A DNA stretch of 64,000 nt, from NCBI GenBank assembly GCA_963780015.1, contig CAWAAO010000009.1, forward strand, positions 907 to 64,906. Direction: 5' to 3'. Source of the stretch: an uncultured Actinomycetes bacterium (lineage in GTDB: Bacteria > Actinomycetota > UBA4738 > HRBIN12). Positions 2,697 to 60,026 of the stretch are shown piece after piece (position 1 is the stretch's first letter; every line of letters starts with the position of its first letter). Both the position numbers and the translations under genes were made by a program. The notes beneath the pieces are model-generated. The model was given only the letters and a program-made list of their open reading frames with translations. It had not been told where the DNA came from and searched no databases.

Positions 2697-4053
2697 ATGT
2701 CTGATGTCGATGGGGTTCGCACCGCCGCGAAGGCGATGCTGCCGGACATCCTGCAGCAGCTCGAACGGATGGTGGCCGTCCCGTCGGTCGCGTTCCCGGG
2801 GTATCCGCCCGAGCCCGTCCACGAGATGGCCGCCACCGTGCTCGACCTGTTCCAGGCGGCGGGCATCTCGAACGCGGCGCTCCAGGACGTGCCCGACGGC
2901 TATCCGCCGATCTACGGGGTGCTCGAAGGGCCTCCCGGGTCACCCGTGGTGGTCCTCTACGCGCACTACGACGTCCAGCCGGCACCGCCCGAGCAGGGGT
3001 GGACCTCCGATCCGTGGGTTCCGACGCGCAAGGACGACGGTCGGATCTACGGACGTGGCGCGGCCGACGACAAGGGCGGGCTCGCGATCCATCTGGGGAC
3101 GCTCCGGCACTTCGGTGGCTCGCCACCCTGCACGATCAAGCTGATCGTGGAGGGCATGGAGGAGACGTCGTCGAACCTCGAGCCGTTCGTGGAGGCACAC
3201 CCCGACCTGTTCGCGTGCGACCTGTTCGTCGTGTGCGACATGGGCAACCTTGCGGTCAACGAGCCGACGCTGACCACGACCCTTCGCGGCGACGTCGCGT
3301 GCGTCGTCACCGTGCGCACGCTCGAGCACCCGCTGCACTCGGGCGTCTTCGGCGGTCCCGTTCCCGACGCGATGATGGCGCTCGCCCGGTTGCTCGCGAC
3401 GCTCCACGACGATGCGGGCAACGTCGCCGTCGAAGGTGTGAGCTCGTTCGAATGGGACGGCATGGACTTCAACGAGGACGACCTGCGCGCGGGCGCCGAC
3501 ATGTTGGACGGCGTCGGGACGACCGGCAGCGGCTCGGTCGGGTCGCGACTGTGGTCCCACCCGTCGATCTCGGCGATCGGGATCGACACGACCTCGATCG
3601 ACGGCTCCTCCAACGTGCTCTTGCCACAGGCGCGGGCGAAGCTCTCGATGCGCATCGTGCCGGGCGCCGAGCCGTCCGCCGAGCTCGACGCGCTCGTGCG
3701 GCATCTCGAGACACACGCGCCGTGGGGCGCGACCGTCGAGGTCGAGCGGACGAAGGAAGCTCCACCGTTCCGATGTGAGACGGGTGGACCCGGCTACGCG
3801 GCCGCTCGCATCGGCGATGGAGGAGGCCTTCGGCGCGCCACCCGGCGAGGCCGGCTCCGGTGGGTCGATCCCGTTGCTGCGAACCCTCCAGGGGGTCGCG
3901 CCCGGCGCGGAGTTCATCCTCTGGGGTCCGGAGGACGTGGCGAAGTCGCGGATCCACGCCTCCGACGAGAGCGTCGACCCCGATGAGATCGAACGGATGA
4001 TCGTGGCTCAGATCCGGCTCCTGGAGCACCTCGCGGACGCAAAGACTGGCTGA
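2697..4053 (+). pseudogene. M20 family dipeptidase/metallohydrolase with one +1 frame break near 3795-3812
   Basis: Frame 0 carries LYAHYDVQP, GRGAADDKGG and EGMEETSS (M20 metal-ligand motifs). The conserved C-terminus ...SAMEEAFGAPPGEAGSGGSIPLL...WGPEDVAKSRIHASDESV... continues only in ORF 3775..4053 (frame +1). Confidence 0.8.
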
Positions 4054-4056
4054 GCC

Positions 4057-4221
4057 TTAGACGCGGGTTCGGGTGATGCTCACGATCGCGTTCATCGGGA
4101 TGCGCGCGACCTCGGCGCCCGCGAGGTGGAACACCCAATCCTCGCCGTCGCGTTCGTAGCCATCGGCGATGACCTCGTCGGGGGAGTCGTCGGTGGTCGA
4201 CAGGAGGTAGAGGTTCGGCAT
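4057..4221 (-). CDS. hypothetical small acidic protein (54 aa)
   Basis: Below the ORF-track length cutoff. My translation is MPNLYLLSTTDDSPDEVIADGYERDGEDWVFHLAGAEVARIPMNAIVSITRTRV*. It has almost uniformly G/C third positions like the real genes here, and is co-directional with and 25 nt downstream of ORF 4247..4429. Confidence 0.4.
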   Translation of the reverse strand: MPNLYLLSTTDDSPDEVIADGYERDGEDWVFHLAGAEVARIPMNAIVSITRTRV

Positions 4222-4246
4222 CCGGCGATCGAGGCGGCGCGTCCGG

Positions 4247-4429
4247 CTAGGACGCGGCCTGCTCCCGCTTCTTGGTCGAGGCCACCGCGTACCCGAGCCA
4301 CAGCACGAGCGGGATCAGCATCAGGGCCGTCAGCAGGGCGAAGTAGACGGCGATCTCGGCGATCAGCTGCAGCTTCTGGGGCAGGTGATCCAGCAGGCCG
4401 TTGATGAACTCCTGGCTCGTCGCGAGCAT
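4247..4429 (-). CDS. hypothetical small membrane protein (60 aa, one TM)
   Basis: MLATSQEFINGLLDHLPQKLQLIAEIAVYFALLTALMLIPLVLWLGYAVASTKKREQAAS. The composition is not shadow-like (K, F, I, N, Q present), GC3 is high, and it lies just downstream of the metal transporter on the same strand. Confidence 0.5.
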   Translation of the reverse strand: MLATSQEFINGLLDHLPQKLQLIAEIAVYFALLTALMLIPLVLWLGYAVASTKKREQAAS

Positions 4430-6706: not shown

Positions 6707-7401
6707 GAGAACACGGCGAGATCGAGGAGCTCCTGGCGCTCGAAGCGATCGGCGGGCTCGAGCCTGCCGACGGCGAGCGCCTGGCCGAGCTCCGCGCCGA
6801 GCACGGACCCGAGTGCGCCGAGTGCGCGGCGCTCGAGGCGGGGTTCCGGGACACGGCCGCCGGGCTCGGCGCCGCGCTCGCGCCGGCGAGGCTCAGCGAC
6901 GATCTGGAGGAGCGAACCGTCGCGGCGGCTCTTGCCGAGCCGCGGTCCGAGCCAACGCCGCGACGCGGACGCTCGATGGCGTGGCTCGCCGTCGCCGCCG
7001 CGATCGTGTTGCTGGCGGTCGGCGCGATCGGCGGGTACCTGGCGGCGCCGAGAAGCTCCGTGGCCGCCTTCATCCAGCAACCCGGCGTCACCCTGGTCCC
7101 GTTCGAGCAGTCGACCGGAGCGGCGGGCACGATGACGCTCGCGATCGGCCCCGACGGCACGGACGCATACGTGATCGGGACGGGGCTCCCGACCCCGCCG
7201 GACGGGCAGGTCTACGAGGTGTGGACGATCGCCGGGGACACCCCGACGTCGCTCGGGTGCGTGGTGCCCAGCGACGGCCACGTCACCGAGAAGGTGCAAG
7301 GGGCGTTCTCGACGGCCGACGTCGCGGCCGTGACCGTTGAGAGCGCGGCGTGTCCATCCGCACCGACCACCGACCCGGTGCAGGTCGCCACCCTTCGCTG
7401 A
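6703..7401 (+). CDS. anti-sigma factor, RskA-like, with ZAS motif
   Basis: ATGA overlap with the sigma gene stop. HGPECAEC fits H-x3-C-x2-C. One TM (WLAVAAAIVLLAVGAIGGYL) and an extracytoplasmic C-domain with ...DGQVYEVWTIAG... as in anti-sigma-K proteins. Confidence 0.8.
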   Translation: MREHGEIEELLALEAIGGLEPADGERLAELRAEHGPECAECAALEAGFRDTAAGLGAALAPARLSDDLEERTVAAALAEPRSEPTPRRGRSMAWLAVAAAIVLLAVGAIGGYLAAPRSSVAAFIQQPGVTLVPFEQSTGAAGTMTLAIGPDGTDAYVIGTGLPTPPDGQVYEVWTIAGDTPTSLGCVVPSDGHVTEKVQGAFSTADVAAVTVESAACPSAPTTDPVQVATLR

Positions 7402-7467
7402 CCGCGGCTTGCGCGCCGTTTCCCTTTCATGGAAGACTCCGCGAGTCCCGGCCTGTCCGGGTCACGA

Positions 7468-7538: not shown

Positions 7539-7610
7539 GGGCGCGTAGCTCAGCGGGAGAGCGCTCGCCTCACACGCGAGAGGTCGCTGGTTCGATCCCA
7601 GCCGCGCCCA
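7539..7610 (+). tRNA. tRNA-Val (anticodon CAC)
   Basis: Folded by hand into a 72-nt cloverleaf: acceptor GGGCGCG/CGCGCCC, D arm GCTC-AGCGGGA-GAGC, anticodon arm CTCGC-CTCACAC-GCGAG, variable AGGTC, T arm GCTGG-TTCGATC-CCAGC, discriminator A. CCA is not encoded. Confidence 0.9.
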
Positions 7611-7627
7611 CTGCTCGCGGAGGTCCG

Positions 7628-8410
7628 ATGTTCCGCCTGACTGACGAACGAATGGGGGATCGCTCGATGTCCATGCAGACGACGGTGCAGCCCGCGGCGC
7701 GTGCCGAAGCGTTGCGCAAGGTCTACGGCACGGGCGGCGCGGCCGTCGAGGCGCTGCGCGGCGTCTCGATCGAGATCGCGGCGGCGGAGTGGACGGCGAT
7801 CATGGGCCCGTCGGGGTCGGGCAAGTCCACGCTCCTGCACATCCTCGCCGGGCTCGACTCGCCCACCGAGGGAAAGGTCTTCATCGGCGACGTCGATCTC
7901 ACGACGCTGAACGACAAGCAGCTGACCCAGTTGCGGCGCGACAAGGTCGGGTTCGTCTTCCAGGCGTTCAACCTGATCCCCACGCTGACCGCGGAGGAGA
8001 ACATCACGCTGCCGCTCGACATCGCGGGCACGTCGGTGGATCGCGCCTGGTTCGACACCGTGGTCGACACGGTCGGGTTGCGCGACCGGCTCGGCCACCG
8101 CCCCTCCGAGCTCTCGGGCGGCCAGCAGCAGCGGGTCGCCGGCGCCCGGGCCCTCGTGTCGCAGCCGGCGATCGTCTTCGCCGACGAGCCCACGGGCAAC
8201 CTCGACTCACGCAGCGGCGCGGAGCTGCTGACGTTCCTGCGAACGGCCGTCGACGACCACGGGCAGACGATCGTGATGGTGACCCACGATGCGCACGCCG
8301 CCGCGCACGCGGATCGGATCGTCTTCCTGGCCGACGGCAACATCGTGGACGAGCTCCGCGAACCGACCGCCGATCGCATCCTGGACCGGCTGAAGGCGAT
8401 GGAGGCCTAG
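7628..8410 (+). CDS. ABC transporter ATP-binding protein (MacB/LolD-like)
   Basis: Walker A GPSGSGKST, Q-loop, signature LSGGQQQRV, Walker B IVFADEPTGNLD, H-loop VTHD. GGAGG lies just upstream of ATG 7628; in-frame alternative starts are at 7652 and 7667. No frame breaks. Confidence 0.9.
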   Translation: MFRLTDERMGDRSMSMQTTVQPAARAEALRKVYGTGGAAVEALRGVSIEIAAAEWTAIMGPSGSGKSTLLHILAGLDSPTEGKVFIGDVDLTTLNDKQLTQLRRDKVGFVFQAFNLIPTLTAEENITLPLDIAGTSVDRAWFDTVVDTVGLRDRLGHRPSELSGGQQQRVAGARALVSQPAIVFADEPTGNLDSRSGAELLTFLRTAVDDHGQTIVMVTHDAHAAAHADRIVFLADGNIVDELREPTADRILDRLKAMEA

Positions 8411-8412
8411 GC

Positions 8413-10971
8413 GTGCTCCGCGCCACCATCAAGAGCCTGCTCGGGCGCAAGCTGCGTCTGGCGCTGACGGCGCTCGCCGTCGTGCTTGGGCGTGGGCATG
8501 ACGGCGGGGTCGTTCATCCTGACCGACACCGCGCTCAAGAGCTTCGACTCCCTGTTCGGCGATCTGTTCAAGGGCACCGACGTCGTCGTGCAGGCCACCA
8601 CCGCCTTCGAACCGGGAGCCGCGGGCAACAGCGGGGGCGGCAGCGAGCGCAAGCCGATCCCCGAGAGCGTCCTGCCGCAGGTGCAGGCCGTCGACGGCGT
8701 CGGCAGCGCGGACGGATCGATCGGCGGCACGGCCTGGATCGTCGATCCGGCGACGAACAAGGTGGTGCAGAACGGCGGCGCACCGCCGATCGGCGGATCG
8801 TGGGACCCGAACACCACCACCTTGACGGTCGATCGCGGGTGGCGCGCCGCCCGCCGGGCCGGACCAGGTGGTGGTCGATGCCGGCACGGCGCTCGATCAC
8901 GACCTGTCGGTCGGGCAGAGGATCAAGGTCGTCACGTCGACCGGCCCGGGCCGAGTACACGATCTCCGGCATCATTCGTCTTGGTACGTCGAACAGCCTG
9001 CTTGGGCGCGACCCTCGCGCTGTTCGATCTGCCGACCGCCCAGAAGCTGTTCGATCGCGAGGGGGAACTCGACGCGATCTACGTCAAGGGGGACGGCTCC
9101 GTCTCGCCCGATCAGCTCGCCGCCGGCGTCGGCGCCGTGCTGCCCGACGGGCTACCAGGCGATCACCGCCGCGTCGGCCGCCGCCGAGCAGCAGGATCAG
9201 GTCGGCCAGGGCCTCGGCTTCCTTCGCACGTTCTTCTTGATCTTCGGGTTCGTGGCGCTGTTCGTCGGCGCGTTCATCATCTTCAACACGTTCAACATCG
9301 TGGTGAGCCAGCGCAGCCGCGAGCTGGCGCTGTTCCGCGCGCTCGGAGCGCCGCCGGCGACAGGTGATGACCTCCGTGATGGTGGAGTCGGCGATCGTCG
9401 GGCTCATCGCCTCGCTCGGCGGCGTCCTGCTCGGCATGGCCCTCGCGAAGGGCCTCGAGGCGCTGCTGTCGGCCTCGGGCTGCAGCTGCCGCCGACGGCG
9501 CTCGTCGTCGCCAGCCGCACGATCATCGTGTCGATCGTGCTCGGCACGGGCATCACGATGGCGGCCGCCTATCCGCCGGCGCGGCGGGCCGGGCGGCTCG
9601 CGCCGCTCGAGGCGCTGCGCGACAGCCGGGCACCGAGCGCCTCGATCCGGCGCCGGGTCGTGGTGGGCTCGCTGATCACGATCGCGGGCATCGCGGCGAT
9701 CGGTCTCGCCCTGTTCGGCGATGTGTCGAACGCCGGGCTCGTGGTCGGCCTCGGCGCCGCGCTCACCTTCCTCGGGGTCGCGATGCTGTCGCCGCTGTTC
9801 GCCAAGCCCATCTCGGCCGTGATCGGCCGCCCCTTCCGCGGCAAGATCGCCGGGCGGCTCGGCGTCGAGAACGCGAACCGCAATCCGCGGCGCACCGCCT
9901 CCACCGCGGCGGCGCTGATGATCGGGCTCGGGCTGGTCGCGTTCGTCTCGGTGTTCGCGGCCTCGCTGAAGGCCTCGGCGACCGCAGACGCTCGACGAGG
10001 TGCTGGGCGCCGACTTCACCCTGTCGTCGAACCAGTTCGCGCCGTTCTCGCCGCAGCTGGCGAAGGATCTGTCCGCCGACAGCCAGTTCTCCACCGTGTC
10101 GGCGCTGCGCCAGAGCCGAGGCGCATGCGGGTGCCTCGGACACGTTCATCACGGGCATCGACCCGGCCACGATCACCTCGGTCATGAACATCGAGCATGG
10201 TGTCGCGGGTCGGTGGCGGATCTCTCGCAACCGAACACGGTGATCGTGTCCCGGACCGAGGCCGACGGCAAGGGTCTGTCGATCGGCAGCACGGTCGACA
10301 TGCAGTTCGCGGCGACGGGGGACCAACCGCTGCGCGTCGTCGGCACGTTCGAGACCAACGGGTTGCTGAACGACTACGCGGTCTCGCTCGACACCTACGA
10401 CGCGAACGTGGCGCAGGTGCTCGACCAGGCGGTGTTCGTCAACGTCGCGGACGGCGTTCCCGTCGAGCAGGCGAAGGCCGATCTCGACGCGCTCCTGGAG
10501 AAGGACTATCCGGGGGTGCACCGCCAACGACCAGGAGGCCACGAAGCAGCAGTACCTCGACGTCGGTGAACCAGTTGCTCGCGATCGTGTTCGTGCTGCT
10601 GTTCCTGTCCGTGTTCATCTCCCTGTTCGGGATCGTGAACACGCTGGGGTTGTCGATCTACGAGCGGATCCGGGAGCTCGGGCTGCTCCGCGCGGTGGGC
10701 ATGAGCCGCAAGCAGGTCAAGCGGATGATCCGAACCGAGGCGGTGATCATCGCGATCCTGGGGGCGGTGCTGGGGCTGGTGATCGGGATCGCGTTCGCGT
10801 GGGCGATGCAGCGGGCGCTCGCGGACCTCGGCATCTCGAGCTCTCGCCATCCCGGTCGGCCAGCTCGTCTTCCTCCTGATCGTGGCCGGCCTTCTCGGGG
10901 TCTTCGCCGCCATCTTCCCGGCCCGACGGGCCGCGAAACTCAACATGCTGGAGGCCATCTCCTACGAGTAG
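8413..10971 (+). pseudogene. ABC transporter permease, FtsX/MacB type with two FtsX domains, interrupted by about 13 frame changes
   Basis: A GTG start overlaps the ATPase stop region. The family-like translation (VLRATIKSLLGRKLRLALTALAVVLG / VGMTAGSFILTDT... / ...FLRTFFLIFGFVALFVGAFIIFNTFNIVVSQRSRELALFRALGA / RRQVMTSVMVESAIVG... / ...VNQLLAIVFVLLFLSVFISLFGIVNTLGLSIYERIRELGLLRAVGMSRKQV... / ...LAIPVGQLVFLLIVAGLLGVFAAIFPARRAAKLNMLEAISYE*) can only be followed by hopping among ORFs 7789.., 8486.., 8868.., 9364.., 10000.., 10197.. . Approximate junctions: 8490, 8840, 8945, 9003, 9160, 9350, 9480, 9980, 10113, 10200, 10520, 10560, 10845. Confidence 0.85.
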
Positions 10972-14259: not shown

Positions 14260-14629
14260 ATGGGGCGGGCGCTGTCTCGGCGCCGGCGCGCTGCTCGGGT
14301 TCCTCGGGGTGGCCGCCGGCGCGTTCGGCGCCCACGCGATGCGGGCGAAGCTCACGCCCGAGCGGCTCGACAACTGGAAGACCGCCGCCGACTACCAGCT
14401 GTGGCACGCGCTCGCGACGATCGCCGCGGGGCTGGCGGCGGCCCGGTGGGAGAGCGGCGCCGCGGCCGCGGCGGGCTGGTGCTTCGTGGCCGGCACGCTC
14501 GTGTTCAGCGGCAGCCTCTACGCGTTGGCCGTGACCGACAGGCGGAAGCTCGGCGCGATCACGCCGATCGGCGGCGTGCTGTTCCTGATCGGCTGGGCGC
14601 TGTTGGTCGTGGCCGCCCTCACCGCCTGA
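14260..14629 (+). CDS. DUF423 (YgdD-like) membrane protein; probable +1 frame break near 14275
   Basis: The track ORF 14309..14629 starts inside the conserved first TM (GALLGFLGVAAGAFGAHA), which is readable upstream in the same frame but has no start there. The only ATG (14260, MGRAL...) is in the -1 neighbouring frame. Otherwise GTG 14309 gives a truncated TM1. Confidence 0.65.
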
Positions 14630-25134: not shown

Positions 25135-25647
25135 ATGTTCGATGCGTGTGTACTCGGTGTGGACCCCGGTGTGGCCCGGTTGGGCCTCGCCATCCTCGCC
25201 CAGCACGACCGGAAGGTCACCTTGGTGTGGAGCGGCACGGTCCAGACCGACAGCGATCTCGACGAGGCCGCGCGTCTGTGCGCCCTGGCCGACGGCGCAC
25301 GGTCCGCGATCGACGAGCACCGACCGACCGCCGTCGCGATCGAACGCGTGGCATGGAGCCGCAATCAGGTCAGCGCGCTGCACGTCGCCCGCGCGACCGG
25401 CGCGATCATGCTGATCGCGGCCCAGGCCGGTTTGCTCGTGGAGGAATACGCGCCCAACGAGGTCAAGCAGGCCATCACCGGCATGGGCAACGCCGACAAG
25501 CGCCAGGTGCAGGACGCGCTCGCGCGGATCCACGGACTCCGTGACGTGCCGTCCCAGCCCGATGCCGCCGACGCGGTGGCCGTCGGGTTGACCCATCTGC
25601 TCGCTTCGCGCATGCGGGGCATCGCGGCGCGGGCGGGCGTCCGATGA
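25135..25647 (+). CDS. ruvC: crossover junction endodeoxyribonuclease RuvC
   Basis: From ATG 25135: MFDACVLGVDPGVARLGLAIL...VAIERV...ADAVAVGLTH. Confidence 0.9.
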   Translation: MFDACVLGVDPGVARLGLAILAQHDRKVTLVWSGTVQTDSDLDEAARLCALADGARSAIDEHRPTAVAIERVAWSRNQVSALHVARATGAIMLIAAQAGLLVEEYAPNEVKQAITGMGNADKRQVQDALARIHGLRDVPSQPDAADAVAVGLTHLLASRMRGIAARAGVR

Positions 25648-26213
25648 TCGCGTTCCTCGACGGGGAACTCCTCGAGAAGAACGTCGGCCGTGTCGTGCTC
25701 AACGTCGGTGGCGTGGGCTACGAGCTTGCGGTGCCGACGTCGGTGCTCGCCGGTCTCCCGGGGGTGGGCGAGCGCGCCCGGTTGCACACGCGCATGGTCG
25801 TGCGCGAGGACTCGATGACGCTCTACGGGTTCGCCTCAACCGACGAACGCGAGCTGTTCGACCTTCTCACCGGGGTGACCGGCGTCGGGCCGAAGGTCGG
25901 GCTCGCGTTCCTGTCGGCTCTGCAGCCCGACGCGCTGCGACGCGCGGTCGTGGCCGGCGACGCCGACACCCTCACCGTTGTGCCGGGCGTCGGCAAGAAG
26001 GTCGCGCAGCGCGTCGTGCTCGATCTGCGCGACAAGCTCGGCGGGGAGGGAGCGGACGTGATCTCGATCGGGCCGCTGGCCGATGTCCGTGAGGCGCTGC
26101 TCGCGCTGGGGCTCACGTCGGCCGAGGCCGCGCAGGTCATGGCCGGGATCGATCCCGAGGGCAAGGCGCCCGACGATCTCCTTCGCGAGGCGCTGCAGAA
26201 GGTGGGACGATGA
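25644..26213 (+). CDS. ruvA: Holliday junction branch migration protein RuvA
   Basis: [28 protein letters not shown]...LYGF...[21 protein letters not shown]... Confidence 0.95.
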
Positions 26214-27262
26214 CCGTCATGCCGGGAACCGACGTGCCCAGCGACCCCTTCGACGAGCGCCTGATCGAGGCCGACGCGCTGAGCCCGGAGGACCGAGAGT
26301 TCGACGTGGCGCTGCGCCCCCGCACCCTCGACGACTTCGTGGGGCAGGACCGGGTGAAGGAACAGCTGAAGGTGCTTCTCAAAGGCGCGAGCCAGCGCAA
26401 CGACCCGGTCGATCATCTCCTGTTCAGCGGGCCGCCCGGGCTCGGCAAGACCACCCTCGCCCAGATCGTCGCGATCGAGATGGGGGCGGGCTTCCAACCG
26501 ACCAGCGGCCCCGCGCTGGAGCGCCCCTCCGACCTCGCGGCGATCCTGACCAACCTCGGCGACGGCGACGTGCTGTTCGTCGACGAGATCCACCGCATGC
26601 CCCGTGCCGTCGAGGAGGTCCTGTACCCGGCGCTCGAGGACTACAGCCTCGACGTGGTGCTCGGCAAAGGCCCGACCGCCCGTTCGATCCGGTTGGACCT
26701 GCCCCGGTTCACGCTGATCGCCGCGACCACGCGACCGGGGCGCATCACGCTGCCCCTGCGAGAGCGATTCGGGTTCAGCCCGAGGCTCGACTACTACGGC
26801 GCCGAGGACCTCACCCGCATCGTGTTGCGCAGCGCCGGCATCCTGGGGGTCGTGACGGCCGAGGAGGGTGCCGAGGAGATCGCCCGCCGCTCGCGCGGCA
26901 CCCCGCGCATCGCGAACCGGCTGCTGCGCCGGGTGCGCGACGTTGCCGAGGTCCGCCACGACGGGGCGATCACCGCCGATATCGCCCGGGCCGGGCTGGC
27001 GATGTTCGAGGTCGACGAGCAGGGGCTCGACCGTCTCGATCACGCGATCCTGCGGGCGATCATCGAGCGGTTCTCCGGGGGTCCGGTCGGTCTCTCGACC
27101 CTGGCCGCGGCCGTCGGGGAGGAGCCGGACACCGTCGAGGACGTGGTCGAGCCGTACCTCCTGCAGCTGGGGTTCTTGCAGCGCACACCGCGCGGACGGG
27201 TGGCGACCCCGCGCGCCTACGCCCACCTGGGGGTCACCGCCCCCGGCCAACTTCCCCTGTAA
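26210..27262 (+). CDS. ruvB: Holliday junction DNA helicase RuvB
   Basis: [12 protein letters not shown]..., Walker [10 protein letters not shown], Walker B LFVDEIHR, ...[16 protein letters not shown]... Confidence 0.95.
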
Positions 27263-27724: not shown

Positions 27725-28464
27725 GCGACGAAGCGATCGGCACGCCGAGCGGCGCGCCGGTGCCCGAGGTGCCGCCCGTGGAGCCGGCGACCGCCGTCGC
27801 GACCGTCACGCTGGCCGATGTCCAGTCCGATCCCGACCTGTCGCTCTACATCGCGTCGGCCGATCGCGTGATGGATGCGATGGGGTACACCGAGCACGGC
27901 TTCCGTCACGCGCATCTGGTGGGCAAGATCGCCTATCAGGTGCTGAATCGGCTCGGATTCTCACAACGGGAAGCGGAGCTCGCGCGCGTCGCCGGCTATC
28001 TGCACGACATGGGCAACGCGCTCTCGCGCGAGGGGCACGCCCAGAGCGGCGCGATGCTCGCCTACCACGTGCTGCGCGAGCGGGTCGACGGAGCCGACCT
28101 GATGACGATCATGGCCGCGATCGCGAACCACGAGGAGGAAGAGGGCACGGCCGTGTCGCCGGTGTCGGCCGCGGTGATCCTTGCGGACAAGGCTGACGTA
28201 CACCGCAGCAGGGTCCGCAAGCCGGCCGAACTCGAATTGGAGCATGACATCCACGATCGTGTGAACTATGCCGTCGAACAGAGTTTCCTGCGGGTAGACT
28301 CCGACGCTCGAACCGTCAGTTTGGAGCTGACGATCGACACCCGGATCAGCCAAGTGATGGAGTACTTCGAGATCTTCCTTGCCAGGATGCAGATGTGCCG
28401 CCACGCCGCCATGGCGATCGATGCGCGCTTCCAACTGTTCGTCAACGGGCAGGAGCTCGCGTGA
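27721..28464 (+). CDS. HD domain-containing phosphohydrolase
   Basis: GTG start overlapping the yajC stop. H...HD signature (GFRHAHLVGK...AGYLHDMGN...). 247 aa, no frame breaks. Confidence 0.75.
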   Translation: MSDEAIGTPSGAPVPEVPPVEPATAVATVTLADVQSDPDLSLYIASADRVMDAMGYTEHGFRHAHLVGKIAYQVLNRLGFSQREAELARVAGYLHDMGNALSREGHAQSGAMLAYHVLRERVDGADLMTIMAAIANHEEEEGTAVSPVSAAVILADKADVHRSRVRKPAELELEHDIHDRVNYAVEQSFLRVDSDARTVSLELTIDTRISQVMEYFEIFLARMQMCRHAAMAIDARFQLFVNGQELA

Positions 28465-46283: not shown

Positions 46284-47397
46284 ATGGATGAATTCGCTGC
46301 TCTCGCGCAGCGCGTCGTGCTCACGATGGACGACGTGCGAGGCTGTCTCGTGCTGTCCCGCGACGGCTTGGTCCTGGGCGCGTTCCCCGAAGACCAGGAG
46401 GCCGAGCTCAAGCCGGCCTGGCTGCGTTTCGTCAATGTCGGGGAAGCCCGCAAGGGGTTCGTCGAGTTCTCCGACCAGCTCTGGGCGTTCGTCCACCGCG
46501 GGCCCTACGCGGCCTTCGTCGTGACCGGCACCAGCGTGCGTCCCGGCGTCATGCTGGATCAGCTCGAGCAGGCCGTCATCGCGGCGGAGGAGACCCGGGC
46601 CAAGCAGAAGGAGGTCACCCTCAAGGTCCCCGACGCGGCGAGCGCACCCTCCGGTCGCCCCCGGACGTCCTTGCACCCGCCAACGGACCGCCCGGCGACG
46701 GCGCCCGTGGGGAGCACGCCGGCCGCCGCGTCCGCGGAGATGCCGAGCTTCGCGGCACCGACCACCGGAGGAGGCCGGCGCCGACCCCGCCTGGCAGGGC
46801 GCCGACCCCGCGCAGATGCAGCAGATGCAGGCGATGCAGGAGCAGATGGCCGCGATGCAGGCGCAGCTCCAGCAGCAGGCGCTCCAGCAGGCGCCCCCCG
46901 CCACCGTCACGCCCGCGACAGCGGCTCCTTCGCCGGCGGCCCCGAACCCCGGTCCCGCCGGCTCGCAGCAGCTGAGCGGCTATCGTCGCCCGGACTCGGC
47001 CGTGCCGACCCCGGCGCCCGAGCCGGCGGCCGACGCCGCCGCCCCGCCGCTGAGCGCGGATCTGTCCGGGCACGCCCGTCCGTCGGTGGAGGGCTCGCCG
47101 TACGAAGCCGTGCTGGCCGACGAACGCTCGGCGTCCCCGTTCGGATCGGAGTCCTCGCCGTTCGCACGGCTCGAGGCCGAACAGGCGGCGGCCGCGACCG
47201 CGGCGGAGACCTCGGCATCTGCCGACGACGGGGGTGTGTTCCGGCAGGAGCCGCAGCGTCTCGTGTCGCCGGAGGAGGCGCCCGCCCCGGCCCCGGCCGA
47301 GGAGGAGCCGGAGGAGCCGGGGGAGGTCGATCGCGTGATGCTCGCCAAGGAGTTCTCGGGGCTGCTTCAGGTCGGTGAGGACGGTGACGAAGACTAG
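46284..47397 (+). CDS. roadblock/LC7 (MglB-like) N-terminal domain protein with a long Gln/Ala/Pro-rich tail; probable +1 frame break near 46768
   Basis: N-terminal ~105 aa: ...MDDVRGCLVLSRDGLVLGAFPEDQE...GFVEFSDQLWAFVHRGPYAAFVVTGTSVRPGVMLDQLE.... The tail continues in ORF 46816..47397 (...PEEAGADPAWQGADPAQMQQMQAMQEQMAAMQAQLQQQALQQ...EVDRVMLAKEFSGLLQVGEDGDED*). The fold call rests on pattern only. Confidence 0.5.
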
Positions 47398-50354: not shown

Positions 50355-51561
50355 ATGCCAGATACCTATGCCTACAAAGCCCGTGACAAGGGCGGCAACA
50401 TCCTGAACGGCACCATCGTCGCCGACAACGAAGCGCTCGTCTTGGCGCGCCTGCGCGAGCAGGGCTTCGTGCCGCTCGAGGTCGACAAGCAGAAGCGCGG
50501 CATGAACATCGAGCTGACCGCGAAGAAGGTCAAGTTCAAGGAGCTGTCCGTCTTCGCCCGGCAGTTCGCCACGATGGTGAACTCCGGTCTGCCGATCCTG
50601 CGCTCGCTCGCGATCCTGGCCGAGCAGACCCAGAACCCCGAGCTCGCACGCGTGCTCGGCGAGATCCGCACCGACGTCGAGCAGGGCTCGTCGCTGTCGG
50701 GCGCGATGGTCAAGCACCCGAAGGTCTTCAACGACCTGTTCGTGGCGATGGTCAAGTCCGGTGAGACCGGCGGATCGCTCGACGACGTGCTCCTGCGGTT
50801 GGCGGACATGATCGAGGCCGAGGTGCGCTTGCGCGGCAAGATCAAGTCGGCGATGACCTACCCGATCGCGGTCGTCGCGCTCGTCGTGTTGATCATGTCG
50901 GCGATGCTGTTGTTCGTCGTGCCGCAGTTCCAGACGATCTACGGCTCGCTCGGCGGCTCGCTGCCGCTGCCGACACGCGTGCTGCTCACGATGTCCAACA
51001 TCTTCAAGAAGTACTGGTACATCGTGTTGATCGGCACGTTCGTGTTCCGATTCTTCTTCAAGCGCTGGAAGAAGACCGACAACGGTCGCGCCTGGGTGGA
51101 CAAGATGAAGCTGCGGGTGCCGGTCTTCGGGATCCTGTTCCAGAAGACGGCGCTGTCGCGGTTCGCATCGACCTTCTCGATGCTGCTGCGCTCGGGCGTG
51201 CCGATCCTGCAGTCGCTCGAGATCGTGGCCGAGACGGTGAACAACCGGGTCGTGTCCGACGCCGTGAACGACGTGCAGGCCAGCGTTCGGCGAGGGTGAG
51301 TCGATGGCCAAGCCGCTGGCCAAGCACGCGGTCTTCCCGCCGATGGTCGTGCAGATGATCGCGGTCGGGGAGGAGACGGGACAGGTCGACATGATGCTCG
51401 AGAAGGTCGCCATCTTCTACGAGCAGGAGGTCGAGGCGTCGGTCGACGCCCTGACGTCGCTGATCGAGCCGCTGCTGATCGCGGTGATCGGCGGGTGCGT
51501 CGGTGCGGCCGTCATCGCCCTGTACATGCCGATGTTCAACATCATCAAGCTGATCCAGTAA
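50355..51561 (+). CDS. pilC: type IV pilus platform protein PilC (GspF family), one +1 frame break at the GGG run 51294-51296
   Basis: Two GspF repeats. ...ASVRRG*(TGA 51297) is followed in the +1 frame by ...ESMAKPLAKHAVFPPMVVQMIAVGEETGQVDMML...PLLIAVIGGCVGAAVIALYMPMFNIIKLIQ*. Removing one G restores ...RRGESMAKPL.... Confidence 0.9.
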
Positions 51562-51756: not shown

Positions 51757-52265
51757 ATGCTCAAGGGACTCATGAAGCGCGTCCGTGAGGACGAGGGCTT
51801 TACCCTGATTGAGCTGATGGTGGTCGTTCTGATCATCGGCATCCTGGTCGCCATCGCTCTGCCGACGTTCCTCGGAGCCCGGAACCGGGCCAACGACAAG
51901 GCCGCCCAGTCGGGCGTCCGCAACGCCATCGCAGCCGCGAAGACGTGCTTCACGGACACGGACTCGCTACCAGGGTTGTGACTCCGCGAAGCTGGCCACG
52001 ATCGAGACGGCGCTGACCTTCGTTGACGGCACGGTGACCTCGACCGACCCCGGTCGATCTGAGCAACATCCCGGCGGAGGCACGGCGCCGACGGTGACCA
52101 CGCGGTGACCAGCATCAACCTCGCGGCGTAGTCGAAGTCGGGTACCTGCTTCTACCTGCGGGACAATGCCGCAGGCCGGAGCACGTTCTACGGGTCGTCT
52201 GCGTCCGACGGCACCGCCTGCCTGTCGACGACGCCATCGGCGCCGCGCAACGCCTCAGCTGGTAA
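51757..52265 (+). pseudogene. pilA: type IV major pilin (PilA-like), disrupted by at least 3 frame changes and one in-frame TAG
   Basis: Class III signal MLKGLMKRVREDEG/FTLIELMVVVLIIGILVAIALPTFL (Gly-1, Phe+1, Glu+5). The body must be read as ...KTCFTDTDS|YQGCDSAKLATIETALTFVDGTVTSTDP|VDLSNIPAE|...AVTSINLAA*(TAG 52129-52131)SKSGTCFYLRDNAAGRSTFYGSSASDGTACLSTTPS.... The C-terminal Cys pair is typical of a pilin D-region. The 3' end is uncertain (possible ...LSW* at TAA 52263-52265). Confidence 0.75.
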
Positions 52266-52393: not shown

Positions 52394-53888
52394 ATGATGC
52401 GCATGTTGCAGACGCTCCGCCGCCGGATGAACGGCGAAGGCGGCTTCACGATCGTCGAGGCGATGATCTCGATCACGATCTTGGCCGTCGGCGCGTTCGC
52501 GGTCGCCCAGGCGATCGATCTTCGGGCTGAGCACGACCGGCCTGTCGCGCCAGAAGCTCTCCTCGCGCGCCGCGGTCGACCAGCAGATGGAAGAGGCTCG
52601 CGCGCTCAATTACGACAACCTCGTGCTGTCGGACTCCTCGCCGCTCACGCACTCGGCCGACACGACGAACCCCGACCACTGGGTCGACGCCAACGCCCAG
52701 ACCTTCGATCCCGATGGGACCGGGGGCCTGGCCGCCGAGTCGCTCGTGCGCGTCGCAGGCGCGTCGCCGGCGCTGCAGCACTACCAGAACCCGCTGCTCG
52801 ACGGCGCCACGACCTACGAGGTGTACCGCTACGTGACCTGGGTCGACTCGACCCAGGACGGCACGGGTGACGCCGACGCCACGGACGGGAACAACGACGG
52901 CATCAGCGACGCCAACGGCCACGACGCCAAGCGTGTCACCGTCGTCGTCGTGTGGAACGACGAGCTCGGTCGCGGCAATACGTCGCTCGCCGAATCGTCG
53001 CTCTTCTCCGACGGCCAGATCATCTACACGGCTCCGGCGACCAACCGCGCTCCGACGGTGTTGTGCCCGACCGCCAGCGTGAGCGACAAGACGGTGACCT
53101 TCACGGCCAACGCCAGCGACTCCGACGGAACGATCGCAAGCGTCTCGTGGAACTTCGGCGATAGCGCGACCGACACAGGCACTTCAGTGGTCCATACGTA
53201 CGCCGAGCTACGCGACCTACACGGTCGTGAACACGGTGACGGACAACGGCGGCTCGACATCCAGCAACTCCGCGGCGGGCTGCACAGTGACGACGGTGAC
53301 CGCCGCCGCCGGGCAACGGCGGTCCCGACGGCATCGTGACCGATCAACGGCGGTGCTTCATACACGAACTCGACGACGGTGACGCTGAGCCTCGCGAAGA
53401 GCGGGGGCGGGCCGAACCCCGCGACGATGTATCTGTCGAACGACAACTCGACGTGGCTCGGTCCCTTCGGCTTCGCCACCTCGTACACGTGGAACCTGCC
53501 GTCGGGGACGGCACCAAGACCGTGTACGCCCAGTTCTACAGTTCGACCGGCAAGTACGGTGCGATCGCGAGCGATACGATCGTTCTTGACACGGTTGCCC
53601 CAGGGACCCCGACGAGCTTCGCGAAGTCCGCATACCACGATCATCGGGTGCCAACACGACGATCACCTTCACGTGGGTCGCGCCCGTCGGCGTCACGGAC
53701 CTGGGCGGCTATCGCGTGTATCGGCGCCTGATCACCTCGACGGGCAGCTACTCGCTCGTGTGCGACACCGCATCGACCTGACCTGCAGTGACACTCACAA
53801 GACGACGGACACCTATGAGTACTACATCGTGGCTTATGACTTGGCGACGAATGTCAGCGCTGGCTCGACACCGCACCTCACGGGCTGA
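52394..53888 (+). pseudogene. minor pilin (PilV-like N-terminus) fused to PKD, Ig-like and FN3-like modules; about 8 frame changes
   Basis: GGAGGAG RBS, then MMRMLQTLRRRMNGEGG/FTIVEAMISITILAVGAFAV (Glu+5). Then |FGLSTTGLSRQKLSSRAAVDQQMEEARALNYDNLVL...; PKD-like ...VTFTANASDSDGTIASVSWNFGDSATDTGTSVVHTYA|SYATYTVVNTVTDNGGSTS...; |INGGASYTNSTTVTLSLAKSGGGPNPATMYLSNDNSTWLGPFGFATSYTWNLPSG|DGTKTVYAQFYSSTGKYGAIASDTIVLDTVAPGTP...; |ANTTITFTWVAPVGVTDLGGYRVYRR...|LTCSDTHKTTDTYEYYIVAYDLATNVSAGS...*. Approximate junctions: 52515, 53205, 53305, 53341, 53504, 53636, 53647, 53775. Confidence 0.7.
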
Positions 53889-54421
53889 CCGGGGCGAGGC
53901 CGGGTTCACCCTGGTCGAGCTGATGGTCACCATGGCGGTGATGAGCATCGTGGCGACGTCGGTGATGGCTGTTGCGTTCCGCTCGTTCACGACGACGAGC
54001 ACGATCACGAACCGTCGCGACGTGCTGACGGACGGGCGCATCGCGATCGACCAGATGACCAAGCAGCTGCGGCAAGGTGAATCCGTCGATCAGGCGGTGA
54101 GCGACGGATCGACGATCACGTTCGACACCTACATCGACGGCGTGCCGGCGACGATCGTGTGGCGGGTGACGGGTTCCTATCCCTACACGCTTGGAGCAGT
54201 CGCGCGACGGCGGCGCGAACTTCGCCCCGCTGGTGTCGCCGATCAAGTGCAATTCGCGACGGACGCACGGCTGCTCGGCGGATCCCTTCACCTACATCCG
54301 GTCTACGGAGGCGTACGTCGACCAAGTGACGATCGATCTGACCTTCCTGACCGACACGTCTACGATCGATCTGATCTCGGACGTCCATCTGCGGAACGCG
54401 CGAAGAGTGAGGACGCGATGA
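53851..54421 (+). pseudogene. minor pilin (PilW/FimT-like prepilin-type protein), at least one +1 frame break near 54190
   Basis: MSALARHRTSRADRGEAG/FTLVELMVTMAVMSIVATSVMAV (Glu+5), ...GRIAIDQMTKQLRQGESV...IVWRVTGSYPYTL|EQSRDGGANFAPLVSPI...DPFTYIRSTEAYVDQVTIDLTFLTDTSTIDLISDVHLRNA...*. It overlaps the previous gene by about 38 nt. Confidence 0.65.
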
Positions 54422-55949
54422 TGCTGACGATCGCTGATCCGCCGACTGCAGCGACGAGGAAGAGGGCTACTCCCTCGTCATCGCGATGTTGCTGCTCTCG
54501 ATCATGATGGTGCTCCTGGCGGTGTCGCTCGATGCCGGGAACGCCTCGCTGCGCCAGTCCGGCTTGTCGATCGAGTGGAGCAAGTCGTTGACCGTCGCTG
54601 AAGCGGGCGTGAACCGGGCCGTCACGCTGCTCGGTGAGAGCCGGGGCGCGACCAACCCGTGTGGGATCTCGACCAGCACCGTGTGCACCGGTGGTGGCGG
54701 CGAGTACCAAATGAGTTGGGCAACGAGCGGCGGGACCGTCCTCGTGAGCTCGATCGGGTACTACCCGACGAAGGCGCGTCCGACGTTCGCGCGCGAGGTG
54801 CAGGTGACGTACGAGCCGGTGCCTTCCTTCAAGTACGCGATCTACTCACAGACCTCCCTGTCCGTCGCCAACAACATGACGGTCATCGGCGACGTCTACT
54901 CCGCGGGCGATATCACGCTGGGCAACGGCGCGACAGTGTGCGGCAGCATCATCTCCTCCGGCGGTGGCGTGAACCTCGTGCAAAGCTCCAACATCGTCAA
55001 GACCGATGCGACGTACGGATGCTCGGGCAAGTCTGGCAACGTCTGGACCGGGGGCACGGGTGGCATCACGTGCCAGAGTCAGGTCACGATCGAGGGGAAC
55101 GCGACTGCATCGAACCCGTCCTCCGCGACCTGCAGCAACCTCGGCACCGATTACGACATCGTTCAAGCTCGGGCGGGACGACCACGGTCGGCGGTGCGGC
55201 GACCGCCTGCGGTGCGCATCTCGAGCGACATCTCCGCTGCGACGACCTCCGCCGGGACGTCCTCGAGTCAACCGGTGCCGGTCGGGTTCCCGGCCTTCAC
55301 GTTCGATCCAAACAACTACCCGAGCGACCCGAGCGACCCGTTGCACCTCCAGTGCTATCCGACCGGAGGCACGTGCGGCTCGAACGATTCCACCACCGCT
55401 GTCTCGGACTTCAACGCCTACGTTGCCGCGCACGCAACCAGCCTTACCGGGACGTTCGCGGTCTGGCAGCGGACGCCGACAAGCTCGACCTACATCAACC
55501 TGGACGGCATCACGTTGTCCGGCGACTTCACCCTCATCACGAACGCGCCGGTCAACTTCGGCAACACGAGCACGATCACGACGACATCGTCGTCGATCGC
55601 GGCGGACCTCGTCGTGAACTCGAGCTACCAGCCCACGGCCGCCTGCACCGCGGACCTCGTCAACACCGGCGGCGCGGACTGCAGCATCTACGGCAAGAAC
55701 GCGATCGAGTTCGACGCCGGCGACGCATCCGATCCCGACGACGGTGTCGTGGGCCTGCTCTATACGACCGGCAAGATGGCCTTCGTGAACTCGGCCAACA
55801 ACTTCGACAGCACCGGCGACGGCGCGCTGTACGCGCAGTCGATGGACTTCAAGAACGGCTTCAACATCATCTACAACTCGCGCGTCGAGCGGGTGCTCGG
55901 CTTCGGAACGACGCTCGAACAGGTGCTCTGGCAAGAGATCAACGTCTAG
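54418..55949 (+). pseudogene. PilX-N/ComGG-like pilus-associated protein with a large Thr/Ser/Gly/Cys-rich C-terminal domain; frame changes at the 5' end and a compensated pair near 55162/55217
   Basis: ATGA overlap at ATG 54418. The conserved ...DEEEGYSLVIAMLLLSIMMVLLAVSL... (no Glu+5) is in the frame of ORF 54486..55949, which has no upstream start. The body has repetitive motifs: ...VIGDVYSAGDITLGNGATVCGSIISSGGGVNLV... Confidence 0.6.
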
Positions 55950-55958: not shown

Positions 55959-56739
55959 GTGCTCACTGCATTCCTCCTCGTCCTGCTGACGGTGTTCGGC
56001 CTTGCCATCGGTAGTTTCATGACGGTGGTCGCCGCCCGAGTGCCGGCGGGGGAGTCGGTGGTGCGCCCCCGGTCGAAGTGTCCGAGCTGCGGTGCCGAGA
56101 TCCGGAACCGCGACAACGTGCCCGTGCTCAGCTGGCTCCTGCTTCGCGGGCGATGTCGCGACTGTGGCGCCCGCATCCCGGTTCGGTACCCGCTCCTGGA
56201 GGTGTCCACGGCGGCGGTCATCGTGGGCTCGTTCCTCGTCTACGACGACCTGTGGATCGCGTTCGGCGTGGCCGCGTTCCTCGCGTTGATGCCGGTCATC
56301 TCGGTCATCGACCTGGAGCACCGGATCATCCCCAACAAGATCGTGTACCCCGCGTTGATCGCCTTCCCGATCTACTCTCGTGGGCGCCCGTCTCGCCGGT
56401 GCGCCCGTCGACCTGACCCGGATGGCGATCGGCTTTCTCGCCTACGGGGGGGCGTTGTTCGTGATCGCGCTCGTGTCCCGCGGCATGGGCATGGGCGACG
56501 TGAAGCTTGCGGCCCTGATCGGGATCGTCCTGGGGTCCCTCGACCTCGGGCAGGTCGCCGTCGCGGCCGGCGCGGCGATCGTCCTGGGCGGTCTCGGGGC
56601 CATCCTCGCGTTGCTGCGTGGGGCCGGGAGGAAAGGGGCGATGCCGTTCGGCCCGTTCCTCGCGGCGGGGGCGATCGTGGCGGCCTTCTGGGGTCCCCAG
56701 ATCGCGGACTGGTACTCGCGCACCTTCCTGCACGTCTGA
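55959..56739 (+). CDS. pilD: prepilin peptidase / N-methyltransferase PilD (A24 family), one +1 frame break near 56375
   Basis: GTG start. ...GSFMTVVAARVPAGESVVRPRSKCPSCGAEIRNRDNVPVLSWLLLRGRCRDCGARI... (zinc-ribbon Cys pairs), ...VISVIDLEHRIIPNKIVYPALIAFPIY|...VGARLAG...GMGMGDVKLAALIG...MPFGPFLAAGAIV... (second half is ORF 56380..56739). Confidence 0.85.
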
Positions 56740-58207: not shown

Positions 58208-58842
58208 GTCGCGTCAATCTGCTTCCCACCGACATCAAGAAGGGCCAGGAGGTTCGCCGCCGGACGCTGCTCGTGTTGATCGGCGCCGCCGCCGTGATCG
58301 GCCTGATCATCTTCTTCTGGGTGCTCCAGGGTGTGCGACTCAGCGGTGTGAACGACGACATCGAGGCGCAGAACCAAACGAACGCGGCGCTCAAGCAGGA
58401 GATCGCCGACCTGCAGAAGTACGAGGACTCTGCAGGTCGAGGCGCAGCAGCAGGAGCAGCTGCTCGCGTCCGCGTACGCGAATGAGGTGGCGTACTTCGT
58501 CGGTCCTGCTCGACGTGTCCAAGGTGATCCCGCCCGACACGTACCTGACCTCGTGGGCGTCCACCGTCGACACGACTGCGGTTCCGCTCCGACCGATCCC
58601 GACATCGACGCCCACGTTCGTCGGCACGATGACGTTCGCTGGGTGCGACCCTGCACTTCGATTCGCTGAGTACGTGGCTCAACAGGCTCGAGGGCGTGGA
58701 TGGATGGGCGAACCCGTGGACGTCGAACATCTCCCAGGAGAGTTCGGTCGCCGGCGCGTTCACCTTCGATACCTCCGTCGACCTGACGCAGGACGCCCTG
58801 ACGGAACGCGGCTTGGCCGGAGCGGCGGTGGCCGGTGGGTAA
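58204..58842 (+). pseudogene. pilN: type IV pilus assembly protein PilN-like, three +1 frame changes
   Basis: MSRVNLLPTDIKKGQEVRRRTLLVLIGAAAVIGLIIFFWVL...LKQEIADLQKYED|LQVEAQQQEQLLASAYANEV|...SSVLLDVSKVIPPDTYLTSWAST...FVGTMTFAG|ATLHFDSLSTWLNRLEGVDGWANPWTSNISQE...*. Approximate junctions: 58430, 58495, 58640. Confidence 0.7.
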
Positions 58843-59429
58843 CCCGCGCGCACCGATCTTCGCCGCCGCCGGCGCGGTCGTGATCGCGATCCTCCTCGTC
58901 GTGCTGCTCGTGCTGCCCAAGATGGGGCAGGTGTCGACGGCCAAGGAGGACCTCGCCGCGGCGGCGAGCCAGGAGCAGACGCTCGAGACGCAGAAGGGCG
59001 CGCTGGAGGACACGAAGGCGCAGGCGCCGGAGAACAAGCAGACGATCGACGAGGTCCACGCGAAGATCCCGCCGACCGCCGACGAAGCCGGACTGATCCA
59101 GCTGATCAATCTGTCGGCCTTGGATTCGGGGCTCGATCTCACGACAGCTGGGCCCGAGCCCGCCGGTCTTCGACGACGTGACCGGGCTCAGCACGATCGT
59201 GCTGTCCTTCAGCGCGATCGGGACCTACAACGAGGTCACCGAGTTCAGCTACCAGATCGAGTCGTTGCCACGCGCGGCCAAGATCACGTCGATGACGCTG
59301 TCGCCCGCGGGCGTGACCGACTCGCTCGGGAACCAGGTGCTGACCGTCTCGATGCAGATCGACGCCTACACGAGCGACACGAGCGCAGGCCCGGGGTCCA
59401 CGCCCGGGCCGACCGAGGCGGGTGGCTGA
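58835..59429 (+). CDS. pilO: type IV pilus assembly protein PilO-like, one +1 frame break near 59160
   Basis: GTG start overlapping the pilN stop. ...PIFAAAGAVVIAILLVVLLVLPKMGQVSTAKEDLAAAASQEQTLETQKGALEDTKAQ...IPPTADEAGLIQLINLSALDSGLDLTT|...VTGLSTIVLSFSAIGTYNEVTEFSYQIESLPRAAKITSMTLSP... (second half is ORF 59178..59429). Confidence 0.65.
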
Positions 59430-59430
59430 G

Positions 59431-60026
59431 ATGCCGATCAGTGACCGCGACCGGCGCATGCTCCGCATCGGCGGGATCGTGATCGGCGTGCTGGTCGTCG
59501 GGTTCCTGCTGCTCAAGCTTCTCGGAGGCGGCGGCGAGGAGGAAGCGTTCCCGTCCTCCTCACCACTGAGGCCGTCGAGCAGTTCGACCCAGCCGACCGG
59601 CACGCCGAGCCTCGCGCCCTCGCCGATACTCGTCCTGCCCGCACGCGACCCCTTCTCGGTCCCACCGGGCTTCGATGTGACGACGAGCTGACCTCGACCG
59701 GCGGGGACGACGACCTCGACCGGCGGGACGACGACGACCTCGACCGGCGGGGGCACGACCACGACCCGACCGCCACGCCGCCGACACAGCCGGGGAACGA
59801 CGCGAGCAAGACGGTCGGGGGACACACGGTGGTGCTCCTGGACACCTTCACGGCAAACGGGGTCGAGCAGGCGCAGGTCGAGGTTGACGGCACGGTCTAT
59901 GACCCGTCGGTCGGGCAGACCTTCGGCCCGAACAAGCAGTACCGACTGCAGTCGGTCTCGGGGAACTGTGCCACGTTCCTCTACGGCGACGAATCGTTCA
60001 CGCTCTGCGTGTCGCCGAACAAGTAG
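59431..60026 (+). pseudogene. PilP-like / unknown pilus-locus protein: TM anchor, Ser/Pro/Thr-rich linker, small C-terminal beta domain; several frame changes in the linker
   Basis: MPISDRDRRMLRIGGIVIGVLVVGFLLLKLL...PARDPFSVPPGFDVTTS* then, in other frames, (TSTGGTTT)n and ...GGHTVVLLDTFTANGVEQAQVEVDGTVYDPSVGQTFGPNKQYRLQSVSGNCATFLYGDESFTLCVSPNK*. Confidence 0.5.
59691..59766 (+). repeat. three tandem ~22-27 nt units ACCTCGACCGGCGGG(G)ACGACG... encoding (T-S-T-G-G-T-T-T)n, with G-run lengths of 4, 3 and 5
   Basis: acctcgaccggcggggacgacg / acctcgaccggcgggacgacgacg / acctcgaccggcgggggcacgaccacg. The unequal G runs put each unit in a different frame. Confidence 0.8.

Follow-up and report, generated by a model that had tools for sequence, protein, structure and literature searches.

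Clustered reading-frame breaks in envelope genes of an uncultured actinomycete contig are very probably errors of the assembly

Has an uncultured Actinomycetes bacterium recently lost several of its surface structures, or does its assembled sequence misrepresent them? The question is raised by a stretch of 64,000 nucleotides (nt) of contig CAWAAO010000009.1 (positions 907 to 64,906; assembly GCA_963780015.1), referred to here as the window, in which many genes for envelope-exposed proteins are interrupted by changes of reading frame. Taken at face value, the type IV pilus and the MacB-type exporter of the window would both be dead and its SecD broken, with about 18 genes split or called as pseudogenes. 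A preliminary description had counted at least 40 such changes and left two readings side by side: artefacts of consensus building or polishing in a microdiverse population, in which surface proteins vary most, or genuine and recent inactivation of surface structures. Our analysis strongly supports an artefact and gives no support to inactivation. The breaks are, with high confidence, single-base consensus errors of a long-read metagenome assembly and not mutations of the organism. They are private to the window, of one base and biased towards insertion, they carry no sign of decay, and sister assemblies are broken in other genes.

The coding frame was called by a seven-state hidden Markov model (HMM) operating on the codon-position pattern of guanine plus cytosine (GC) content (a GC3 frame plot), since spurious open reading frames (ORFs) are abundant at the approximately 70% GC of these 64 kb. 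Breaks were placed with our own protein-to-DNA dynamic-programming aligner, which has explicit frameshift states, and with DNA alignments to close relatives. The frameshift-aware aligner replaced plain tblastn, which, with orthologues as queries, crossed out-of-frame stretches of the window without locating the breaks. Nucleotide comparators were taken as the DNA around orthologues found by searching with the corrected products of the permease, SecD and PilC genes, for which intact full-length orthologues exist at 90%, 96% and 99% identity, respectively. The comparators, with the parts of the window that they cover, were the following.

L081: ENA, 87% nucleotide identity to the window, covering window 4.2-21 kb
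L082: NCBI, 85% nucleotide identity, covering window 4.3-21 kb
L083: ENA, 97% nucleotide identity and conspecific, covering window 17.8-40.6 kb
L084: ENA, 93-95% nucleotide identity, covering window 23.4-31.8 kb
L085: ENA, approximately 85% nucleotide identity, covering window 40.35-61.6 kb
L086-L088: three independent contigs of the Joint Genome Institute (JGI), 93-96% nucleotide identity, covering window 47.6-53.1 kb

Frameshift-aware alignment to orthologues put the number of frame breaks, all of them in the stretch from 3.7 to 59.8 kb, at 43 or more: 14 in an FtsX/MacB-type permease, three in the periplasmic head of SecD, about 22 in the type IV pilus cluster, and single breaks in the genes for a DUF423 membrane protein, HtpX, an M20 peptidase, a methyltransferase, RuvX and a roadblock-like protein. 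The frame HMM returned the same list of forward-frame switches as the preliminary description, with which this census agrees gene by gene, and read each long housekeeping gene in a single frame. By alignment, zero breaks fell in thrS, the EF-G-like gene, relA, hisS, aspS, alaS, ruvABC, pdxST, aroC, pilB, pilT and pilM, as had been stated for all of these except ruvC; for aroK, aroB and aroQ the absence of a frame switch was established by the HMM only. The density of breaks after frameshift-aware alignment was not equal between gene classes, being approximately 1.8 per kb in the membrane and envelope genes of the window and approximately 0.11 per kb in its cytoplasmic genes, a difference of about 17-fold that rests on some three clusters of breaks that are not independent of one another. 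The clustering itself exceeds chance, with an index of dispersion of 2.7 in 1-kb bins, a value attained by 0 of 20,000 simulations.

The events are uniform in kind. All but one, a gain of 7 nt in SecD, are 1-2 nt in size, and insertion-type events outnumber deletion-type events by 34 to 9 (79% insertion-type; p = 2e-4). No break site lies inside a homopolymer of four or more bases, and 25% of the sites touch a run of three, as compared to a background of 17%. GATC, CGATCG, CCGG, GGCC and the other palindromic motifs tested were not enriched within 10 nt of the break sites. One in-frame stop codon is clear, a TAG at 52129, and a second is possible at 59689; the earlier claim that the TAG in the pilin was the sole in-frame stop therefore holds for that codon and may be one short.

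Each window break that could be compared was private, in that none of them was found in L081-L088. A three-way alignment of the window with L081 and L082 over 7.5-21 kb contained 17 window-private events of 1 nt, comprising 16 insertions and one deletion, of which 14 lie in the permease, one in the DUF423 gene (14274), one in htpX (20687) and one in intergenic DNA; in the same alignment, indels private to L081 or L082 either lie between genes or have lengths divisible by three. Against the conspecific L083, the sole events that break a frame of the window are htpX 20687 and SecD 28815, 28970 and 29941.

The sister assemblies carry breaks of their own. When the intact proteins of the window were used as queries, L083 showed 41 frameshifts in the same 22 kb, affecting relA, aspS, apt, pdxT, yebC, ruvC, ruvA, ruvB and rarA, all of which are intact in the window; its frameshifted relA is otherwise 100% identical to that of the window over 757 residues. 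In the ruvC/ruvA region of L083 (6830-7800, corresponding to window 25250-26250), about 20 indels occur within 1 kb together with 6-14% single-nucleotide polymorphisms (SNPs) versus a baseline of 2.5%, and this stretch resembles a segment of low quality, or one from a divergent haplotype, inside a contig whose identity is otherwise 97%. L084 has 16 frameshifts of its own. In L085 there are no fewer than 17, affecting alaS, mltG, aroE, pilB and pilT, with its pilins, pilD and pilN/O/P intact. Because the clusters in these assemblies fall in cytoplasmic housekeeping genes (ruvC/ruvA, alaS, mltG, aroE and relA) and not in envelope genes, the envelope association is a property of this window and not a rule. 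Artificial fusions created by the sister-assembly frameshifts are present in public protein collections, namely a RuvA-RuvB protein of 480 residues in L084, an 852-residue 'SecD' (P0128) that runs into SecF, and a DUF948-AlaS protein of 870 residues; the loci are L084 1790-3232 and 4071-6629, and L083 from 22010 onwards.

The densest cluster lies in the permease gene, directly downstream of an ATPase gene that serves as an internal control.

7667-8410, plus strand: ABC ATPase partner of the permease; one unbroken ORF, free of window-private indels in the three-way alignment
8413-10971, plus strand: FtsX/MacB-type ABC permease, 849 residues when corrected; 14 single-base indels, of which 13 are insertions and one is a deletion

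The frameshift-aware aligner gave 13 frame changes in the permease with each of three orthologues, in line with the approximately 13 breaks first described there and the absence of any in the ATPase. The window-private insertions are at 8488, 8833, 8951, 9004, 9143, 9351, 9986, 10114, 10195, 10206, 10521, 10559 and 10840, and the deletion, relative to L081 and L082, is at 9469. The local indel rate is thus about 0.5% over 2.6 kb, with sharp borders against clean genes. Once corrected, the permease aligns end to end with its orthologues with no in-frame stop, and is 90% identical to an intact relative (P0001). Window-private substitutions amount to 5.4%, and the ratio of window-private to L081-private substitutions, 0.87, lies inside the range of 0.57-1.10 seen for intact neighbours; codon position 3 holds 64% of the private substitutions, the same as in the ATPase and thrS. 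By substitution load and by comparison between relatives, the permease is neither unusually diverged nor enriched in private substitutions. A further long-read metagenome-assembled genome (MAG), MFD02134.bin.2.91 (L002 10730-13278), also seems to carry its permease orthologue in two pieces, as overlapping ORFs of 443 and 681 residues.

SecD and the genes with single breaks are as follows.

2697-4053, plus strand: M20/M25/M40 peptidase; one +1-type break at about 3757, with an HMM switch from frame +2 to +0 at 3757/3758
14260-14629, plus strand: DUF423 membrane protein; +1 at 14274, five codons in, private relative to L081 and L082
19930-20845, plus strand: HtpX, an M48 protease; +1 (T) at 20687, private relative to L081, L082 and L083
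24384-25091, plus strand: S-adenosylmethionine-dependent methyltransferase; one +1-type break at about 24520, inside motif I, from the HMM switch
28460-30643, plus strand: SecD; -1 at 28815, +7 at 28970 and -1 at 29941, from pairwise alignment with L083
43748-44203, plus strand: RuvX (YqgF); one +1-type break at about 44044, from the HMM switch
46284-47397, plus strand: protein with a roadblock-like N-terminal domain and a P/A/Q-rich tail; one +1-type break at about 46766, from the HMM switch

As first described, all three SecD breaks lie within or border the periplasmic P1 head, and the transmembrane half of SecD and SecF are intact. The conspecific L083 is intact at all three sites and encodes a SecD of 723 residues (P0121) that is 96% identical to the corrected product of the window. 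The P1 head (window 28800-29950) contains an unusually long insert, with Cys residues and partly of low-complexity S/P/A-rich sequence, in a SecD of about 723 residues in total; relatives have kept this insert, which shows natural length variation of 6-7 nt.

The single breaks of the preliminary description were likewise upheld. L081 and L082 each encode an intact DUF423 protein of 122 residues, and htpX is intact, at 304 residues, in L081, L082 and L083. In the corrected M20 peptidase, Pfam Peptidase_M20 covers profile positions 1-205 of 206, versus 1-135 in the straight ORF; the RuvX profile (2-133 of 134) and the Methyltransf_23/25 matches run across the respective junctions after correction only. 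The roadblock-like protein matches no Pfam family, and its break was hence confirmed through L085, with which the corrected protein aligns end to end; L085 is continuous at the junction near 46766 and has five other breaks of its own in this gene. The methyltransferase is a strain-variable accessory gene between a lipoprotein-like gene and ruvC. It has been removed by two different deletions, in L083 (6583-6640) and in L084 (about 930-1000); L083 retains its first 27 nt, joined to sequence just upstream of ruvC, and L084 retains only its 3' end.

The third group of breaks occupies the type IV pilus cluster.

50355-51561, plus strand: PilC (type II secretion system F family); +1 at 51292, private relative to L085-L088
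51757-52262, plus strand: major type IV pilin (N_methyl); three to five breaks (51965, about 52053, about 52171 and others) and an in-frame TAG at 52129-52131
52394-53882, plus strand: 528-residue pilin-like protein with N_methyl and an fn3-like C-terminal part; about seven breaks (52514, 53207, 53310, 53341, 53504, 53638 and 53778)
53932-54400, plus strand: 147-residue pilin-like protein; one break at 54189, with an L085 orthologue at 51% identity
54438-55949, plus strand: 504-residue putative pilus-associated protein; a compensating +2/+1 pair at 55178 and 55213, through which the ORF stays open
55959-56739, plus strand: PilD prepilin peptidase; +1 break at 56375, L085 PilD at 87% identity
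58204-58839, plus strand: PilN-like protein; three +1 breaks at 58428, 58495 and 58640, 209-residue L085 orthologue at 81% identity
58835-59426, plus strand: PilO; +1 break at 59146, L085 PilO at 82% identity
59431-60026, plus strand: PilP-like protein of 196 residues; one or two breaks in a T/S-rich tract at 59689-59766, L085 at 82% identity, HMM switch at 59679/59680

Frameshift-aware and DNA alignments bore out the breaks reported in the pilin-like genes, pilN/O/P, pilC and pilD. The pilC insertion at 51292 is the sole indel relative to L086 (96% nucleotide identity) across 4 kb, and the site is intact in L086-L088 and in L085; the relatives read CAG or GAG where the window reads C-G-AG. 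At the TAG of the major pilin, frameshift-aware and DNA alignments place W or Y in relatives (L087 and L085). For the 528-residue protein, L085 is 54% identical, and L087 is 94% identical over the first 225 residues, with one break; past 53100 the breaks depend on the distant reference, and their number is approximate. The weakest item is the compensating pair in the 504-residue ORF, which is 35 nt apart and replaces about 11 residues relative to the 306-residue L085 orthologue, a reference only 51% identical, so that an effect of the alignment is possible. Two -1 'breaks' at 56911 and 56925, upstream of an HTH_17 gene, were left uncounted; they probably lie in a 5' leader into which the L085 gene call is extended too far.

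The minor-pilin block (window 52900-55500) is hypervariable, its minor pilins being 51-54% identical to those of L085 and some of its DNA stretches unalignable, and its GC content falls to 64-66%. The major pilin is 77-81% identical to those of relatives whose PilC is 97-99% identical; across the pilin block as a whole, amino acid identity is 51-81%, versus 87-99% in the flanks, with 87-97% for the neighbouring pilC, pilD and pilM in the comparison with L085. Real multi-base indels separate relatives in the C-terminal region of the pilin and in the minor pilins. Some of the length differences there are natural variation, and the break counts in these regions are approximate. It is plausible that microdiversity caused the errors of the pilus block. 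The view that surface proteins vary most is only partly supported: it is true of the pilin block, but the permease is not more diverged than its neighbours, and the clusters of the sister assemblies are in cytoplasmic genes.

How would such errors arise? The source platform was most likely Nanopore with a Flye-type assembly. The closest relatives are Nanopore-only MAGs of the MFD series plus ENA contigs with Flye-style names, and the Nanopore-only project behind the relatives most like the window used Flye and one round of Medaka (PMC12313526). The ERZ accessions (L081 and L083-L085) are presumed to belong to the Microflora Danica long-read project. The authors of the Flye and Medaka project had found earlier that a near-finished R10.4 consensus requires about 40x coverage, and that microdiversity degrades MAGs (PMC9262707). 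In the mechanism that we propose, bases would be added, and less often dropped, where the local consensus is poorly supported, whether by low local read depth, by reads of co-existing strains piled together or by both, in shares that may differ from cluster to cluster. Where two strains differ by an SNP, both alleles could be kept side by side as a 1-nt insertion; equivalently, a two-strain pile-up might represent a substitution as an insertion plus a deletion, of which only the insertion is retained. Both alleles of the relatives do stand adjacent in the window at pilC 51292 (C-G-AG), 8488 (GG-G-C), 8833 (GA-T-C) and 10521 (GT-G-C). These sites, together with the coincidence of the L083 cluster with raised SNPs, implicate mixed haplotypes. 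In the real organism, the permease, SecD, type IV pilus genes, HtpX, RuvX and the others would be intact and under purifying selection.

Several points weigh against this account or parts of it. Of the 16 resolved insertions, only 4 show the both-alleles pattern clearly, with a rough chance expectation of 1-2 and five more insertions at variable sites, so the pattern is suggestive of mixed haplotypes and not significant alone. Because of this low fraction, low read depth may have contributed as much as strain mixture, or more. The permease is not visibly more variable among relatives than its neighbours, which leaves microdiversity unproven as the cause there; its closest relatives, none of them conspecific, have only 85-87% DNA identity, and a very recent private burst of indels is compatible with the alignments. 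The errors are not of the classic Nanopore homopolymer type, and their mode is non-standard. Finally, the platform of the window is only inferred.

Of the alternatives, the one that survives best is a mixture, in which artefacts make up the bulk of the breaks and a small number are genuine lesions of the strain. Candidates for such lesions are the break in the methyltransferase gene, the TAG of the pilin, and some of the indels in the hypervariable pilin C-terminus and minor-pilin block. Of all the breaks, that of the methyltransferase alone has a plausible claim to be real, because the loss of this gene by separate deletions in L083 and L084 marks it as accessory and as being lost from the population. 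In the pilin genes, the multi-base indels between relatives show that real length changes do occur. Against this, the candidate lesions are the same in kind as the rest, 1 nt in size and private, and the corrected pilin and minor-pilin readings remain family-like. We regard the mixture as a minority possibility. A similarly tentative proposal is that the error clusters mark the most microdiverse loci, namely the pilins, PilN/O/P, the SecD head and the extracellular domains of the permease, with a few lesions (methyltransferase, pilin TAG) perhaps being real. If this were true, the density of frameshifts in a long-read MAG could be used, with no need of the reads, to gauge how hypervariable surface structures are among strains.

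Genuine and very recent pseudogenisation of the permease, SecD, the pilus and the other genes, for example where phages or predators select against surface structures, would account for the 17-fold enrichment in envelope genes, the in-frame TAG, the hypervariability of a pilin block exposed to phage and, in the methyltransferase, a break in a gene that two relatives have independently dispensed with. It is nevertheless very improbable. Natural decay yields lesions of mixed sizes that are mostly deletions, and here nearly all are of 1 nt and predominantly insertions. Fourteen redundant single-base indels in one permease gene, under neutrality, would need many accompanying substitutions, and neither an excess of substitutions nor a loss of codon-position-3 bias is seen. 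The breaks are missing from the 97%-identical conspecific and from the JGI contigs, and no comparable lesion is common to L081-L088. Loss at the level of the organism is implausible because it would have to take relA, aspS, alaS and ruvABC in one sample and the pilus, SecD and permease in another, in sequences that are otherwise near-identical; with the same type of lesion in relA, aspS and alaS of the sister assemblies, such joint loss is not credible.

Platform errors tied systematically to context, either homopolymers or a motif whose DNA methylation leads the basecaller astray, are the best-known cause of indels in Nanopore consensus sequences (PMC9262707), and we judge them just as improbable for this window. 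They would be spread across its whole length and not confined to about three clusters beside clean genes, and the sites show neither the long runs nor the motif enrichment that they would produce, contact with runs of three being near background. Regulated frame change, by slipped-strand phase variation or programmed ribosomal frameshifting, matches the classes of gene affected, as contingency loci are typically pili and surface proteins, but can be practically dismissed, since the sites have no homopolymer or short-repeat tract and no common slippery motif, a gene may hold up to 14 breaks of both signs, and the orthologues are plain single ORFs.

Across the window, the genes stand in an order typical of Actinomycetota: thrS, pgsA-htrB-pimA-like genes, pdxST, ruvCAB, yajC-secDF, apt-relA, hisS, aspS, alaS-ruvX-mltG-aroE, the type IV pilus cluster and then aroCKBQ. 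When GTDB species representatives were scanned with the ABC ATPase, no named organism proved to be close; the best matches were MAGs of uncultured 'Actinomycetota bacterium', many of them named 'MFD...', at no more than 80-81% amino acid identity. Exact-sequence queries with the ATPase, from either of two start codons, and with PilT matched no record. The sole RNA gene detected is a tRNA-Val (7539-7611). Further window-private 1-nt indels, at 7397-7467 and 7651, are intergenic and lie around the intact tRNA-Val gene, between an anti-sigma gene and the ATPase; they were left out of the break count, and natural variation and error are not separable there.

The breaks are thus almost certainly not a biological feature, and they should not be taken to mean that pili, transporter or SecD are missing from the organism. 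The main value of the finding is as a caution for the annotation and comparative analysis of long-read MAGs. The same risk of misannotation attaches, in other genes, to L083, L084 and L085, and protein databases built from such contigs will contain fragments and artificial fusions. Pseudogene counts, presence or absence in pangenomes and inferences of surface-structure loss need frameshift-aware annotation or checks at the level of reads. The error mode, clustered, outside homopolymers and biased towards insertion, is also worth reporting to the authors of assembly pipelines.

Three known systems resemble the window in part. In phase-variable contingency loci, slipped-strand mispairing operates in pilus or outer-membrane genes, and the frameshifts of the window are likewise mostly in pilus and surface genes; the window differs in having no repeat tract at any site and many breaks per gene instead of one switch, and cytoplasmic genes are affected in the sister assemblies. 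Mycobacterium leprae and recently host-restricted pathogens have pseudogene-rich genomes under reductive evolution, in which, as here, many genes are frameshifted yet recognisable. True pseudogenes, however, build up nonsense codons, lose segments of widely differing length, take substitutions at every codon position and are common to related strains, features of decay that are not seen in the window. The closest likeness is to the indel errors of long-read (Nanopore and PacBio) sequencing, which fragment gene calls and have been addressed by the IDEEL test, by proovframe and by frameshift correction of long-read metagenomes (PMC9262707, 10.1101/2021.08.23.457338). As in those cases, single-base indels private to one assembly break otherwise perfect ORFs, the genes affected differ between assemblies of one population, and short-read-type contigs of close relatives are intact. 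The sites of the window differ from the usual long-read errors in lying outside homopolymers, in their bias towards insertion and in their strong clustering beside error-free genes, and for these reasons a locally unsupported or mixed-strain consensus is favoured over context-dependent basecalling error.

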